Positions 28,431 through 41,454 of a stretch of DNA of 64,000 nt are shown piece after piece. The stretch's first letter is position 1. The number at the start of each line of letters is the position of its first letter. Both the position numbers and the translations under genes were made by a program. Source of the DNA: a virus (lineage: Duplodnaviria; Caudoviricetes); the IMG/VR virus record IMGVR_UViG_3300037484_000435, positions 96,001 to 160,000 of that record; one strand, written 5' to 3'. Below the pieces are notes generated by a model. It was not told where the DNA came from and made no database searches. It saw nothing but the letters and a program-made list of their open reading frames with translations.

Positions 28431-28610
28431 TTCCTTTATTTAAAAGGTTTTTTATTTAACCTTGTGCCCCTTAATAGAAGGATGCCAATAGGCCTCCACC
28501 GATCTTTGGACTTAATGATTCCGTGTGGTTGCTATAAAGGAGGTTATAGTATAAAATTATTACCTTAAAAGGATGGGAGGATCTAGGTAATCCTATCAGA
28601 GGAGAACACA

Positions 28611-36213: not shown

Positions 36214-37095
36214 TTACCACCTTCCGCATTTAGGACATTTTACCATCGCCGTGTCCTCCGTAACTCCTGCTTTATACCTGAATGAAAAACTGTCCCGCTC
36301 GAATTCATACCCACATTTATCACAAACAAAACCTCCACTAGTGAGGAAGTTGGTTGCCCGAGTAATTATGTCATACATCTCCCCACAGTCTGCTCTCATT
36401 TTTTCCTGATAGGCACGAAGTGCTAACCACTGATCGATATACTTTTTTAGATTATCCCAATGATCGAACATATACATTCTTTTACCCTTATCTCTCATCT
36501 CTAAATAAGGGAGTTTAGTCCAAGGCCACTTAAGTGTTACAACGTGAATACGAGCATCTATATATTTTTCCCAATAAAGATAATTGTCCTCCACAAACAT
36601 CTCAACTTTATACTCTTTCAGTAAATCCAATTTGTCATTTCTAAATTCGTCTTCGTAAATATCACCTGTACAAAGAACCTCAAATTTAACCTTTGGCCCC
36701 AACGCCTGCTTGATAGAATTGATAGCGGCCTGTTTAAACTGGGCTCGGCGTGATGTAATAAATAATAGCGGCTTCTTGTAGCTCTCATAGAGACCACACA
36801 GAGCTTCTACAGCACCATTTACTGGAGGTAGGGCATGATTATACAGAACAGGCTCATATACCACCCTCAATTTACTAGTAGGGACTCCTACAATTTTACC
36901 TATATCGTAATGAATCCATTTGTCCAACGACCAAGGTAATTCTAAATGAGATGTAATAGCATTCCACATCTCGGTAGCAGTATCGAGAACAATCCCGTCT
37001 ATATCAAAAGCAACTGGTAAATGCTCCCCAGGCTCAAAAATCTTTTCAATGGGCACATCAGTAATCTTTGTGAGTTCAATATTAAAAGTATTCAT
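36214..37095 (-). CDS. HAD-family 5'(3')-nucleotidase-like protein with a C-terminal Zn ribbon
   Basis: FDIDGIV, ITSR, FVEDN; CDKC...CPKC. Confidence 0.75.
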   Translation of the reverse strand: MNTFNIELTKITDVPIEKIFEPGEHLPVAFDIDGIVLDTATEMWNAITSHLELPWSLDKWIHYDIGKIVGVPTSKLRVVYEPVLYNHALPPVNGAVEALCGLYESYKKPLLFITSRRAQFKQAAINSIKQALGPKVKFEVLCTGDIYEDEFRNDKLDLLKEYKVEMFVEDNYLYWEKYIDARIHVVTLKWPWTKLPYLEMRDKGKRMYMFDHWDNLKKYIDQWLALRAYQEKMRADCGEMYDIITRATNFLTSGGFVCDKCGYEFERDSFSFRYKAGVTEDTAMVKCPKCGRW

Positions 37096-38134
37096 TTAAT
37101 CCCTCTGGGGTTCCTATTAGTAGTTTGTCTCCAGTATCAATAATCACCAGATTCGACACGCCATACAAAGCAATAGTTTTACCTGGAGGTTTAAAAATAA
37201 GATTGCTGGTGGACTCAATAGAATGCACACCTGCTTGGCCTTCCGGTTGAAATAATCCAGAATCGTAGAGAAGATGCTTTATGGAAACCCAGTTATCTAA
37301 TGTAGACCAAGCAATTTTTGGGATAAGGGCACCGCGTAACTTTCTATCTGTCAAAATAGAAGGCACTACAAAAGAGAACGGAGTTACTTCTAATTTATTC
37401 CAACCCATAATTTGGGACCCTTTTACTTGTAAAGCCTCTCTCAGATAGTGATCGAACGATCGTAAAGATGCTCCGTAAGTTCCTAAATCCCACATCCAAT
37501 TGTTGGCTACCAATTCTTTGGCAGAATCTAAATCAGGCGTAATCTGATACCCTTCCATCGCAACATTTAATGTACTAATTGTCCCCAAGACAGTGTCCTC
37601 GTAAGGGATTCCCATTGTAGTAACTTGTTGCCAATCACCAAAAAAGTAATTCATTCCGGGGGACGGGCCACCTGGGTTCAAACAAACTGCCACCCATTCA
37701 TCTGGGTGCGTCCTTAACCGCGTTGCAATATTTAAAAAATGAAACATTGCTAATTCAGTTGGCCATAAAAATTGGTCAGATGGTGAAACAATTATTGGTT
37801 CGTCGGAAGGAACTTCTTTTATATCTATTAAATACCTAACAGCTTCCCAAATGGCCCATGCTGAACCTTTTTGTGCTGGTAAGGTTAATACATTTGATAC
37901 AGGAATCCCGTAGAGATTTAATGTGTTTTGTTTAATGAGAGAGTCTATAGATTTGCCCGTAGTCACTATAATAAACCGGTCTCCCTGTCCCTCTACTACC
38001 GCAGATAATCTAGCTAAAGTTTCTTCCAATAGTGATAACTCACTGTATACTGGTAAAAATGCTTTAGGTAGTTCCTCGGAGGTTACGGGCCAAAGTTTCG
38101 GTCCAATTTCATCTGCCAATATAATTACATGCAT
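37082..38134 (-). CDS. mannose-1-phosphate guanylyltransferase (ManC)-like, degenerate active site
   Basis: VIILA...LWP....PK.FL; C-terminal NLI...IALYGVSNLVIIDTGD.LLI; GGxGxR replaced by DEIGPK. Confidence 0.8.
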   Translation of the reverse strand: MHVIILADEIGPKLWPVTSEELPKAFLPVYSELSLLEETLARLSAVVEGQGDRFIIVTTGKSIDSLIKQNTLNLYGIPVSNVLTLPAQKGSAWAIWEAVRYLIDIKEVPSDEPIIVSPSDQFLWPTELAMFHFLNIATRLRTHPDEWVAVCLNPGGPSPGMNYFFGDWQQVTTMGIPYEDTVLGTISTLNVAMEGYQITPDLDSAKELVANNWMWDLGTYGASLRSFDHYLREALQVKGSQIMGWNKLEVTPFSFVVPSILTDRKLRGALIPKIAWSTLDNWVSIKHLLYDSGLFQPEGQAGVHSIESTSNLIFKPPGKTIALYGVSNLVIIDTGDKLLIGTPEGLNEYF

Positions 38135-38168: not shown

Positions 38169-38810
38169 TCATGTTTGGTGTCTATGATGACCTGAGAGTC
38201 CGTGCTCTTTAATGGCATCGAGATGTTGTTTAGTTGCAAATCCTTTATTTGAGTTCCACCCATATAGGGGAAGCTCCTCATGCAACATATCCATCAGAGC
38301 ATTCCTAGCCGTCTTAGCCACAACAGAAGCCGCAATGCAAGGTTCGAAGAACTCACTAGCACCATCGGCCCGAATTATGGGTATGCCAGAACCGTATAAG
38401 TTTGATGGCAATGTTTCCTGTGTATAACCAAACCCATCAATTATTATGGAAGTGGCTGGGTAATAAATAGAAAAACTAGAAAGGCAAACAGACAGTGCCT
38501 GTAAAATAACCATATCGTGAGTTCTTAAATAATCATCAAATACACCCCAACCTATGGTGAGAAAAGACGACCTCAGTTTTATGTCATCAGAAATCTTGCG
38601 ACATTCTTCTTCACTTAAATCCTTTGCGGGCTGTGTGTACTGAACTTTGGAGTGTGGCTCCACTATGACCGCTGACGCGCAGATGGGCCCAGCAATAGCT
38701 TTACGACCATTAATAGACACACCCACTAATGTTCTGAACCCGACCGTATCATATATCTCGGTCATAGTTAAAAGTTTTTTCTCCCTAAGTTTGTCTAGGA
38801 ACCACGCCAT
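38169..38810 (-). CDS. RNase HII-like, catalytic Asp/Glu missing
   Basis: GVSINGR..IAGP..ASAVI, IIIDG, IAASVVAK..R, YGW..NKG..T..H..AI..HG....HR. Confidence 0.85.
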   Translation of the reverse strand: MAWFLDKLREKKLLTMTEIYDTVGFRTLVGVSINGRKAIAGPICASAVIVEPHSKVQYTQPAKDLSEEECRKISDDIKLRSSFLTIGWGVFDDYLRTHDMVILQALSVCLSSFSIYYPATSIIIDGFGYTQETLPSNLYGSGIPIIRADGASEFFEPCIAASVVAKTARNALMDMLHEELPLYGWNSNKGFATKQHLDAIKEHGLSGHHRHQT

Positions 38811-38811
38811 T

Positions 38812-40038
38812 TCAATAAACCCACTCATCGCAAAGAAAGGTTTGAAAACTTTCTATAAGCTTTAACTTCTTGCAACTGGGCTCAATTTTTAATGTTTTAC
38901 CGACTATTGAACCTAATTTAAAGCGTCCCGTAATACGCCTACCTAGGATGAAATATATTTTCCCCAAAAACTTTACCTTATCGTAACGTTGGAATCCCTT
39001 AATAAATCTAGACGCTGTATTACGAATGTGGCTTCGAGCACCTTTAAATAATTTTCTATTTTGTTTGCGAACTTGTTTTACTAGGTGTTGAGTCCCACTA
39101 CGAATTTGGTTTATACCACCTACTATAGCAAAAGCATCATTTTGATGTGACTTTACTAAACCTAATTGTTCTCTAGTATTTTTAGTAATATAACCAAAGG
39201 TTTCTTCCACATCACCACACAATTCCTGCAACTTCAAAATTAGACGTTTCTTAACAATTGACATAAAAGTCTCCGCTTTAAATCCTTTGGTAACCTTAAC
39301 TTTAAGTTGAATAGAGCCCGCATGTAGCTTATCATGACAACTCTTACATAACGTGATTAGGTTATCGGGCCTATCAGAACCACCTTGACTGCGTTGTAAG
39401 ATATGATGAACATTAAGCCGCGGTTCTTTAGAACAACCTTTACAATGCTGGCAAATGTGCCCGTCTCGATGGAGCACATAAGCTCTAACATTATCAAACC
39501 CCAACTGATCACCTTTTTGATATTGGTTACCTCTAATGCTAGGGTTCTTAATACGCTGAATGTCAAAGTTAGCTGTCTCAATTACAATCTTTGTAACAGA
39601 TAAAATTGATATTACTTTTTGGATAATCCTAATATGAGAATCCAATTTATGTTGTATTGATGGGGCAAGAGGATTTCGTTTAAACTTCTCTATCCTATTA
39701 AGGAACCTGCATTTACGGTGCCTAGTCTTCCTAGAACGCCGAGTTTTTCGATACATACGACGTTCTGTTAACAATTTAGAAACGTCTTTTCTAAGCAAAA
39801 CTTCTGCTGAAAATAACTCCTGTTTCTCAGTAACCGCTGACAATCCAATATGCTCATAACCTGAGTCTACTCCTAACGTTATATGTTGCCTATAGCCTGA
39901 ACTCCCGTAAAGTAATTGTATTGTGAATGGTGTACGCTTAACAACCTTAGCCTTACCCCTCTTAAGTAAAATTCTGGCTTTAGGTGGTGTAGTAGGCATT
40001 AAAGGTTTTCCCTGTTGATTATGAACATAAACAAACAT
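38812..40038 (-). CDS. iscB: IscB RNA-guided endonuclease (OMEGA; IS200/IS605-derived)
   Basis: PLMP domain, GVDSG (RuvC-I), Arg-rich bridge helix, IET (RuvC-II), C..C..VHHI..GG....NL..LC..CH (HNH), SHQNDA (RuvC-III). Confidence 0.95.
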   Translation of the reverse strand: MFVYVHNQQGKPLMPTTPPKARILLKRGKAKVVKRTPFTIQLLYGSSGYRQHITLGVDSGYEHIGLSAVTEKQELFSAEVLLRKDVSKLLTERRMYRKTRRSRKTRHRKCRFLNRIEKFKRNPLAPSIQHKLDSHIRIIQKVISILSVTKIVIETANFDIQRIKNPSIRGNQYQKGDQLGFDNVRAYVLHRDGHICQHCKGCSKEPRLNVHHILQRSQGGSDRPDNLITLCKSCHDKLHAGSIQLKVKVTKGFKAETFMSIVKKRLILKLQELCGDVEETFGYITKNTREQLGLVKSHQNDAFAIVGGINQIRSGTQHLVKQVRKQNRKLFKGARSHIRNTASRFIKGFQRYDKVKFLGKIYFILGRRITGRFKLGSIVGKTLKIEPSCKKLKLIESFQTFLCDEWVY

Positions 40039-40039
40039 T

Positions 40040-40269
40040 ATTGTAATTACTCCTCGTTACTAATGTAACTTGGGTTAGGGCCTCATCGCTAATGTTATCA
40101 TAGTTTGTTATGTTATGTACACTACCCCTGACCCTCAGGATTGTTTAATATATAACCACAGAGCAGGGAACTTGAGGAGCATTCCAAGGTGTGATGGCCA
40201 TAATAACGTAGCCCTGTATTTCAGGACTAAAGCTAATCAATTTTTTTTTATTACGTGGTCAATTGATTA
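40040..40269 (-). ncRNA. omegaRNA scaffold upstream of iscB
   Basis: TTGATTAG, CTACGTTA, GAATGCTCCTCAAGTTCC..CTCTG, TTAAACA.TCCTGAGGG, AACATTAGCGA blocks typical of IscB omegaRNAs; TAATCAATT/AATTGATTA closing stem. Confidence 0.8.
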
Positions 40270-40898
40270 AATATTTCCTTCGCCCTGCATAAGTGTGTAT
40301 ATGACAACCAATTCTCTTTTTCTTTATTTGCTCTCATCAAATATGATGGATGATACGTAGTTACTAGACTAGCTCGCCGTCTTATCCCATCAGAACAAGC
40401 ATACTCGAAAAAAGGTAACCGTTCACCCAAAATAGACCCCAACGAATCTGATTTTTTTAATAAACCCAACGAATAAGCAGCAACCTTACCGAATACCAGA
40501 ATCAATTTAGGCTGTATGATTTCGAGTTGGCGGAATAAGAAAGGCTGACACGCATGGACCTCATCGTATGCAGGTGTTATAGCGTTTGATTTCCCCTCGT
40601 GCATAGGTCTTGATTTGATTGCGTTCGTAATGTATAGTTGCTCTCTCACAAATCCAGCACCACTAATCATCCCTTCCCAATATTTGCCCGCCTTTCCAAC
40701 ATATGGGCGTGGCACAGGTTTGGCATAAAACTCCTCTTCTCCCGCCGCCTCCGAGATTGACATCACTAAAGCATCAGCAGGACCCTCACCAAATACTCGA
40801 CAAGGGCCCTGCTGGGATATATAACATCTCTTACAAGACTCAACTTCCTTTTTTAGTCTTTCGAGACCTCTTTGTGCCTCCATCAGCTCGTTTGTCAT
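40251..40898 (-). CDS. uracil-DNA glycosylase family 4
   Basis: CKRC, FGEG, SEAAG, PYVGKAG, YITNA, TYHPSY; one Fe-S Cys position reads KSRP instead of KCRP. Confidence 0.88.
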   Translation of the reverse strand: MTNELMEAQRGLERLKKEVESCKRCYISQQGPCRVFGEGPADALVMSISEAAGEEEFYAKPVPRPYVGKAGKYWEGMISGAGFVREQLYITNAIKSRPMHEGKSNAITPAYDEVHACQPFLFRQLEIIQPKLILVFGKVAAYSLGLLKKSDSLGSILGERLPFFEYACSDGIRRRASLVTTYHPSYLMRANKEKENWLSYTHLCRAKEIFNQLTT

Positions 40899-41454
40899 CC
40901 GTTACCTCGTCATCAATAAGACCGTCTGAATCAAGCATATCTTGAACGACATCTCCTTTGGCTTGTACCACTATGGCACCATCCAGCCCGTCTACTTTAT
41001 CTTTCAGTATTGCGGCTCTTGCACACTCTCCAATTTTTGTAAATACATCCAACCCGTAACGAGCAATGATTGCAGAATGTCCTACTATATCGTGTGGTTT
41101 AAGTGCCCACTCGGGATTCCCATCGTCACCAATCTTGTCTTCGCCATCCTTGTCTTTCTTGACAACACAGCTTTCAAGGGCCGAGTCTAGCATTGCGGTT
41201 TGTTCCACTGAGGAAAGTTCATTCCAAAGTTCATACGTGATTAGAAACACATAATCTTTCTCTGTCAACGTATTCCATACGCCCGTTACTCTCTTAACTA
41301 TTGCAACCTGCCCAGATTCTATTTCGGCAGGTGACGCTTTATCCCGATACAAAAAGACCATACTCGCTGTCGCAATTTCTGTGTGGTATTTACCTATCAG
41401 TTCCTCTGCTAAATCCGTAATTTCTTTTCCTGCTGTCCAAAATTCCATTCTCAT
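40840..41454 (-). CDS. phage metallopeptidase-like protein lacking HExxH
   Basis: DYVFLI....W..L...Q.AMLD(SALES)C...KPHD....I.RYG. Confidence 0.65.
   Translation of the reverse strand: MRMEFWTAGKEITDLAEELIGKYHTEIATASMVFLYRDKASPAEIESGQVAIVKRVTGVWNTLTEKDYVFLITYELWNELSSVEQTAMLDSALESCVVKKDKDGEDKIGDDGNPEWALKPHDIVGHSAIIARYGLDVFTKIGECARAAILKDKVDGLDGAIVVQAKGDVVQDMLDSDGLIDDEVTDDKRADGGTKRSRKTKKGS

Follow-up and report, generated by a model that had tools for sequence, protein, structure and literature searches.

Introduction

IscB is an RNA-guided nuclease and the transposon ancestor of Cas9. Elements mobilised by TnpA, the transposase of the IS200/IS605 group, have as their hallmark similar hairpins at both ends. 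According to Meers et al. (2023, bioRxiv 10.1101/2023.03.14.532601), a tnpA gene lies near about 1.5% of all iscB genes, donor joints are cleaved by IscB, which drives the element's re-copying, and IscB elements show a bias towards a place behind an upstream gene of the same orientation. In addition, a TnpA-independent 'non-restorative homing' into co-infecting phages or plasmids has been proposed (PMC13565253). Here we analyse an IscB-omegaRNA element in a 64,000-nucleotide stretch of phage DNA, called the window, which comprises bases 96001-160000 of the 545,322-bp IMG/VR virus record IMGVR_UViG_3300037484_000435, rated as complete by CheckV. The element lies between the genes for a uracil-DNA glycosylase (UDG) and RNase HII. 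Positions given without a contig name refer to the window, and all features described there are on the minus strand.

Every structural feature of this locus is that of a non-autonomous ISC/IS605-type IscB element, and it is not a new kind of system. Specific to it are the insertion into a gene overlap, a stop codon that is supplied by the element, and the loss of both end hairpins with nuclease and scaffold intact. As a joint explanation we favour, with a probability of roughly 70%, a non-autonomous IscB-omegaRNA element of the ISC branch of IS200/IS605 that serves as a transposase-independent, RNA-guided homing gene.

Results

The element is inserted seamlessly into the overlap of two phage genes

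Syntenic relatives were found by protein database searches with UDG and RNase HII, whose homologs on the same metagenomic contigs are 71-77% and 67-87% identical, respectively. An earlier description of the locus from its sequence alone (the sequence-only reading) had suggested looking for relatives with an empty UDG-RNase HII junction. Nine related contigs turned out to have the gene order of the window with nothing between the two genes, which overlap by 20 nt (26 and 35 nt in two cases). The closest, with an 87% identical RNase HII, is a contig of 11.7 kb. Five of the nine (L097, L098, L099, L102 and L103) were compared as DNA. They read ...AAGGAAATA(N)TA(R)^ATGGC(N)TGGTT..., where ^ marks the junction. 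When positions 38811-40267 are removed from the window, the remainder reads ...AAGGAAATATTTA^ATGGCGTGGTT... and is colinear with all five empty sites without a gap. Because this deletion restores colinearity, the element measures 1,457 bp and has produced no target duplication. The insertion point, ...ATATTTA^ATGGCG..., lies inside the 20-nt UDG/RNase HII overlap, directly 5′ of the RNase HII start codon. An A is found on each side, which means that both boundaries can slide together by 1 nt and that the element start at 40267 is defined to within one base. The last element base is an A at 38811; this left end lies 1 nt past the iscB stop and has neither hairpin nor spacer.

The protein termini agree with a seamless insertion of the element into the overlap. 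All UDG relatives end in ...EIFNG(L/V)V(S/P)(G/R), a native tail that corresponds to the RNase HII 5′ end in another reading frame, whereas the UDG of the window ends in ...EIFNQLTT. The conserved overlap of the two genes is also seen with a UDG relative of 60% identity, and the empty state is therefore ancestral. The nine related contigs have no element at this junction, whereas the window and a hot-spring metagenome contig of independent origin carry it. Against GenBank phages, the 7-kb region had no megablast match, and a UDG-based scan of IMG/VR yielded no relative. The corresponding RNase HII scan of IMG/VR returned just 29-37% identical genes of unrelated phages, which are of no use for the empty site. 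We also looked here for the site that corresponds to the IscB element of another related contig (L101), but the gene behind that element lacks a homolog in the genome of the window.

The sequence-only reading had placed the iscB stop 1 nt from the next gene's ATG, and this spacing holds: the stop TGA (38814-38812) is followed by one base and then by the ATG at 38810. Since RNase HII begins with MAWFLDKL in all nine relatives, the ATG at 38810 is the true start of this gene. A start at the ATG at 38828 (MSGFIE...), with ATGA as target-adjacent motif (TAM), was also considered. It was ruled out, as the relatives start with MAWFLDKL and the empty sites join at 38810.

The nuclease and its RNA scaffold are conserved

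The iscB gene (38812-40038) encodes a protein of 408 amino acids whose family assignment is unambiguous. Pfam RRXRR (PF14239) matches at 4.4e-60 over profile positions 1-174 of 174, the PLMP motif of the N-terminal region occupies residues 12-15, and Pfam HNH (PF01844), inserted in the split RuvC, matches residues 199-240 at 2.6e-11. Solved IscB chains (OgeuIscB 7XHT/7UTN and others) align to the protein with an E-value of about 1e-43. By this alignment and by motif positions, the RuvC residues D58 (GVDSG), E154 (IETAN) and H298/D301 (SHQNDAF) are present, as are the HNH residues H211/H212, N226 and H235. In an alignment of 15 sequences, D58, E154 and D301 (with H298) as well as H211, H212 and H235 are invariant, and N226 is nearly so. 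Pfam, solved chains and the 15-sequence alignment thus agree with the RuvC D/E/D and HNH His residues reported in the sequence-only reading. The 408-codon reading frame is open and nearly every family-invariant residue is kept, so that the protein is predicted to be catalytically intact. The closest outside protein, encoded on contig L100, is 71% identical.

Upstream on the same strand, a full-length omegaRNA scaffold (HEARO, RF02033) was found at 40074-40267. The covariance-model fit that had been proposed as a check gave 118 bits (gathering score 83, E 1e-23) and covers model positions 1-211 of 211. Folding of guide plus omegaRNA by minimum free energy gave a z-score of only -2.0, and the covariance-model match is the meaningful test. 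The match ends 35 nt before the iscB ATG. A GAGGAG motif in this 35-nt leader (40039-40073) precedes the ATG by 12 nt, and the leader probably extends the omegaRNA at its 3′ end; downstream omegaRNA elements are missing from RF02033 (Meers et al.). A scan for sigma-70 promoters and terminators gave no more hits than shuffled sequences (9 versus 8.2 and 2 versus 1.6).

The 5′ end of the scaffold is formed by the P1 or guide-adapter hairpin, which doubles as the transposon's right end (40234-40267). Here TAATCAATT (40269-40261) can pair without mismatch with AATTGATTA (40242-40234), its reverse complement. The 9-bp complement that had been described for the 5′ stem is thus real, but its two outermost pairs (40269 and 40268) consist of flank or guide bases; the element itself starts at 40267 and contributes a stem of 7 bp. 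From exactly this position onwards, the scaffold resembles the genome's three other omegaRNAs. The loop of 18 nt consists of CCACGTAAT followed by nine A. It contains the UDG stop TAA (40253-40251), and the element therefore supplies the stop of the upstream gene, as had been proposed.

The guide source matches the UDG 3′ end and ATGG is the putative TAM

The 16 nt directly 5′ of the scaffold, GCGAAGGAAATATTTA (40268-40283), are flank and not element according to their colinearity with the empty sites, and the earlier assignment of the guide to the UDG 3′ end was correct. They consist of native codons of UDG (...A-K-E-I-F-(N)), which also contain the ancestral Shine-Dalgarno sequence of RNase HII, AAGGA; in the empty site its distance from the ATG is 8 nt. 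The sole perfect match of the guide in the 545-kb genome is its own locus. There, the element would spare itself because the scaffold, and not ATGR, follows the guide.

On the other side of the element, the flank ATGGCG (38805-38810) consists of the RNase HII start codon and an Ala codon. ATGGC is kept in all five empty sites read as DNA. Among elements whose ends were deduced by comparison, ATGA or ATGG also follows three further copies in the genome, six IMG/VR relatives and the elements of L100 and L105. We infer from these flanks that ATGG is the TAM, which would then be of the ATGR type. To characterise the flanks, nine elements were compared: the window copy, two further copies of the same genome (C and D) and those of L089, L091, L092, L093, L095 and L096. 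In eight of them, the ATG of the 3′ ATGR opens a reading frame of 66-626 codons. The upstream reading frame enters the omegaRNA for 14-17 nt before stopping in five of the nine, and a Shine-Dalgarno-like purine run is present in most of the 5′ flanks. Because these phage elements lie directly before start codons, the TAM appears to be the start codon itself. The locus thereby adds to the evidence that IscB elements of gene-dense phages persist immediately in front of start codons, and that their guide spans the upstream gene's end or the ribosome-binding site.

Both end hairpins are missing and the genome encodes no Y1 transposase

An imperfect hairpin CCCC..GC-TAAA-GC..GGGG is found twice per element in copy D, the element of L100 and seven IMG/VR relatives. 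One of the two lies inside the P1 loop (right end); the other, at the iscB stop, is separated from the ATGR by 5-25 nt. In the window copy, the CCCC..TAAA..GGGG hairpin was found at neither end, in line with the reduced internal hairpin and the missing downstream hairpin of the sequence-only reading. The P1 loop retains a remnant, CCACG-TAA and the run of A, and has lost the inner hairpin and a second small hairpin. Its predicted folding energy (ΔG) is 0.0 kcal/mol at 18 nt, versus -3.3 to -23.5 kcal/mol at 30-71 nt in the 27 further phage omegaRNAs for which a P1 was detectable. Consistent with this, the Rfam match of 194 nt is the second shortest among 43 phage-borne omegaRNAs, the rest of which, except for that of L105, measure 201-265 nt. 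Relative to the sister copy C, about 31 nt are missing at the 3′ end. The best hairpin near the iscB stop has -3.9 kcal/mol and belongs to the weakest fifth by this noisy metric.

The absence of tnpA that had been noted for the window extends to the whole 545,322-bp genome: the Y1 transposase profile (PF01797) gave no match at E≤1 in either, in a search that detected the transposase in control genomes. The element is inserted seamlessly beside a short conserved motif, as are IS200/IS605 (ISC) elements, and is found here with neither the end hairpins nor a TnpA gene. OrufIscB/NovaIscB remain active after a 42-nt truncation at the top of the 5′ guide-adapter hairpin (PMC13180657). As such a truncation is tolerated, the loss of the ends appears to strip what a transposase needs and to spare what the nuclease needs.

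These ends also bear on the possibility that the locus is an ordinary mobilisable, non-autonomous IS200/IS605-type element with divergent AT-rich ends, which is served in trans by a TnpA of the host or of a co-resident element. IscB would then have its published 'restorative' role, in which the element is copied back after excision. For the about 98% of iscB genes that have no tnpA close by, mobilisation in trans is assumed (Meers et al.). The hairpins of the sister copy C are likewise non-canonical and AT-rich, the left end of the window copy has a weak AGAAAG/CTTTCT hairpin at a distance of 23 nt, and the insertion is seamless beside the usual motif of the family. On the other hand, the complete genome encodes no Y1 transposase, the P1 loop is unstructured and the canonical hairpin that relatives have at both ends is absent here from both. 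Furthermore, the three IscB copies of the genome are just 58-67% identical, and there is for this reason no sign of recent transposition within the phage. On balance, we regard mobilisation in trans as unlikely.

A natural variant and the available targets

A hot-spring metagenome contig from a different study bridges both junctions (38780-40387) with the element at the same site. It differs by six substitutions and by one A fewer in the A-run. Four of the changes fall into iscB, three of them synonymous and one non-synonymous. At 40241 the variant has eight A instead of nine, and at 40256 an A-to-G change (minus strand) converts the UDG tail codon ACG to GCG. Both differences lie in the degenerate P1 loop, which therefore seems to be still drifting. 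No RNA run carrying the locus was present among the sequencing runs listed.

An alternative view is that the element is an inert passenger, that is, a once-active insertion which is now unexpressed or does not cut. It would have been retained because precise losses are rare and because UDG now takes its stop, and RNase HII its coupling, from the insertion, and its intact appearance would reflect too little elapsed time. Such a state would fit the decay of both ends, the upstream promoter-like signal that does not exceed chance, the lack of a target-bearing relative among those sampled, and an element GC content of 36.6% versus 41.9% for the genome with no obvious constraint. However, the long reading frame has stayed open with all catalytic and nearly all family-invariant residues. 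With a score that exceeds the Rfam threshold by 35 bits, the scaffold has shrunk only in the part that is dispensable for the nuclease. The 3:1 ratio of synonymous to non-synonymous iscB differences between the two samples points in the same direction, with too few changes to decide. Taken together, an inert passenger seems improbable.

Other IscB and omegaRNA copies

The genome contains four omegaRNAs. Three of them are accompanied by iscB (100, 67 and 58% identity to the IscB of the window), one is an orphan, and an IsrB-like gene is present in addition. The similarity among the genome copies extends from the first base of P1 through the C-terminus of IscB. Copy D (G000:C1:27045-28511, plus strand; locus L003, 1501-2967) has canonical CCCC..TAAA..GGGG hairpins at both ends. 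It shares sequence with the element of L093 up to GGAATATT(T/C)G before ATGA, and because the likeness extends that far, the 3′ boundary of copy D is most likely at 28511. The orphan is a full-length HEARO/omegaRNA of 129 bits (G000:C1:483408-483617, minus strand; locus L001) with no iscB behind it, located 7.3 kb from copy C. An open reading frame of 369 amino acids (starting MKLTVPLKLL), 300 bp downstream on the opposite strand, looks like TnpB. A fourth reading frame with an RRXRR domain (G000:C1:471525-471989, minus strand; locus L088; 131 bits) is open over about 340 amino acids. By tblastn, no match to the HNH region was obtained, and the reading frame resembles IsrB. This gene, copy C and the orphan omegaRNA lie within one 30-kb region.

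At least 212 IscB-encoding stretches were recovered from IMG/VR with two peptide patterns. On one 256-kb phage contig (IMGVR_UViG_3300005077_000001; L105:1315-2760), a second 'stripped' IscB element was observed. Its omegaRNA match is 162 nt long, P1 is a 4-bp stem (GTCA-TAT-TGAC) and no hairpin follows the iscB stop. The element is flanked by AAGGAGG and a stop codon on the 5′ side and by ATGA on the 3′ side. Together with the window copy, this makes two stripped elements among the 43 examined. We only tentatively suggest that large phages harbour such stripped-down IscB elements, which would be free of TnpA-binding hairpins and act purely as RNA-guided homing genes; this reading is somewhat doubtful.

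The number of copies also touches on a possible domestication by the phage. The element could serve as a weapon against close competitors that are free of it, leading to exclusion without conversion, or the cassette could mainly be a regulatory spacer by which the expression of RNase HII is reset. In favour are the presence of an orphan omegaRNA, an IsrB-like gene and three IscB genes in one genome, the finding that homing endonucleases can benefit phages by killing relatives too divergent to convert (PMC13565253), and the distance of 1 nt between iscB stop and RNase HII start. However, a guide that is fixed by the flank provides a single 16-nt target that relatives already escape. Nothing indicates a target in the host or in unrelated phages, no second perfect match occurs in the genome, and a weapon and a homing gene cannot be separated by sequence. 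We consider domestication very improbable.

Genomic setting

The cassette is embedded in a series of co-directional minus-strand genes in the order metallopeptidase (40840-41454), UDG, IscB cassette, RNase HII and a nucleotidyltransferase-like gene (37082-38134). UDG is of the family 4 type and has 215 amino acids (40251-40898); its tail, ...EIFNQLTT, is now encoded by the element. It overlaps directly with the metallopeptidase gene (40840-40898). RNase HII (38169-38810) has 213 amino acids. Its start lies 1 nt past the iscB stop in the window, and a 20-nt overlap with UDG is the arrangement of the empty site.

In three related phage contigs (L097:701-2282, L102:1-922 and a relative contig of 129,661 bp), a type II restriction-modification pair (N6_N4_Mtase and RE_EcoO109I) is found between the metallopeptidase gene and UDG. 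This pair is a second presence/absence polymorphism, located one gene from the IscB site.

Discussion

A model for RNA-guided homing

We read the element as immobilised and as spreading only by RNA-guided homing, which seems the best interpretation of the sequence data. The element is co-oriented with UDG and RNase HII, and its first hairpin gives UDG the substitute tail QLTT and a stop. In the model, the omegaRNA would arise by read-through of the UDG transcript and would be loaded into IscB together with its 16-nt guide. In a co-infecting genome without the element, belonging to the same or a very close phage, the complex may then cut the uninterrupted UDG/RNase HII junction, where the guide match is followed by ATGG. 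Recombinational repair from the element-bearing genome would copy the element in, and it could persist as an RNA-guided homing gene with no dependence on TnpA. Such a cycle corresponds to the nuclease half of what Meers et al. showed for the Gst IscB and TnpB; with the transposase half left out, it would amount to the non-restorative homing of PMC13565253. Because the gap between iscB stop and RNase HII start is 1 nt, translation of RNase HII by termination-reinitiation after IscB is suggested. One may speculate that the loss of the left-end hairpin and spacer was favoured for restoring translational coupling in the interrupted operon.

Several points weigh against this reading. The five relatives compared as DNA mismatch the guide at 3-4 of 16 positions. 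Of these mismatches, one (G/A) lies at the end far from the TAM and the others are confined to the four TAM-adjacent bases, which are wobble or variable positions of the UDG tail. The effective guide of IscB is 13-15 nt long (PMC13180657). With 3-4 mismatches, most of them beside the TAM, and an effective guide of this length, the sampled relatives are probably not cut and would be poor targets. In the Logan contigs of four DNA runs, no contig joining the two flanks was found; since these contigs drop rare variants and the depth of the runs is low, this is not evidence of absence. Furthermore, the 6-bp AT-rich hairpin near the left end might allow some recognition by a transposase. A TnpA may also be encoded by the host. 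Finally, the 'erosion' of the ends rests on a comparison with elements of 58-72% identity and not with a direct ancestor.

The locus does not change the current understanding and is a well-documented instance of IscB, which is common in phages. It maps a natural IscB insertion exactly, with both boundaries, guide, putative TAM and real empty sites, and thereby supplies the information needed to test TnpA-independent RNA-guided homing in phages. If large phages do harbour stripped elements that live purely by homing, these would represent a natural transposase-free intermediate on the way from a transposon accessory nuclease to a free-standing programmable homing endonuclease. The naturally minimised 5′ hairpin of the omegaRNA and the compact 408-aa IscB with its putative ATGR-type TAM may also be of interest to engineers of small editors.

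Comparison with known systems

GstIscB is encoded by ISGst, a non-autonomous IS605-type element of Geobacillus stearothermophilus, and resembles the window copy in several respects. In both, the flank 5′ of the scaffold provides the guide, tnpA is missing in cis, element and upstream gene have the same orientation, and the catalytic aspartate D58 has the same residue number. GstIscB has the TAM TTCAT on the 5′ side of the left end; viewed on the iscB strand this is ATGAA, and the ATGG of the window fits the motif. However, the Gst elements keep both end hairpins and are excised by a genomic TnpA, whereas the window copy has neither hairpin and its phage has no TnpA. Additionally, the Gst target is a site in a bacterial chromosome and that of the window a phage gene overlap.

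OgeuIscB and OrufIscB (7UTN, 7XHT, 9NVU; PMC13180657) share with the window protein the domain order, the aligned catalytic residues and an omegaRNA of the HEARO type. Engineered omegaRNAs of the OrufIscB type that lack the top of the 5′ guide-adapter hairpin are active, which parallels the naturally short P1 of the window. The two proteins are longer (about 495 versus 408 aa) and use the TAMs NWRRNA and NTAAA, in contrast to the ATGR inferred here.

The free-standing T-even homing endonuclease genes SegF, SegB and Mob (PMC13565253) are, like the window element, selfish nuclease genes wedged between conserved genes and absent in relatives, and both kinds are predicted to spread or to exclude competitors during co-infection through break repair. 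They differ in recognition, which relies on a flank-copied guide RNA and a short TAM in the window element and on protein-DNA contacts in the T-even enzymes. As in intron homing, self would differ from non-self in whether the element is present; in the case of the T-even enzymes the distinction lies in substitutions. Comparable in mechanism is the TnpA-independent, non-restorative homing of IS605 TnpB that is described for plasmid populations in section 6.1 of the same source (PMC13565253), where spread relies on RNA-guided cutting of the orthologous empty site in another replicon and not on transposition. In the TnpB case, as that section presents it, the guide is at the 3′ end, the TAM lies 5′ of the target, and homing was shown experimentally in plasmids, whereas for the IscB of the window a corresponding role in a phage is a proposal.

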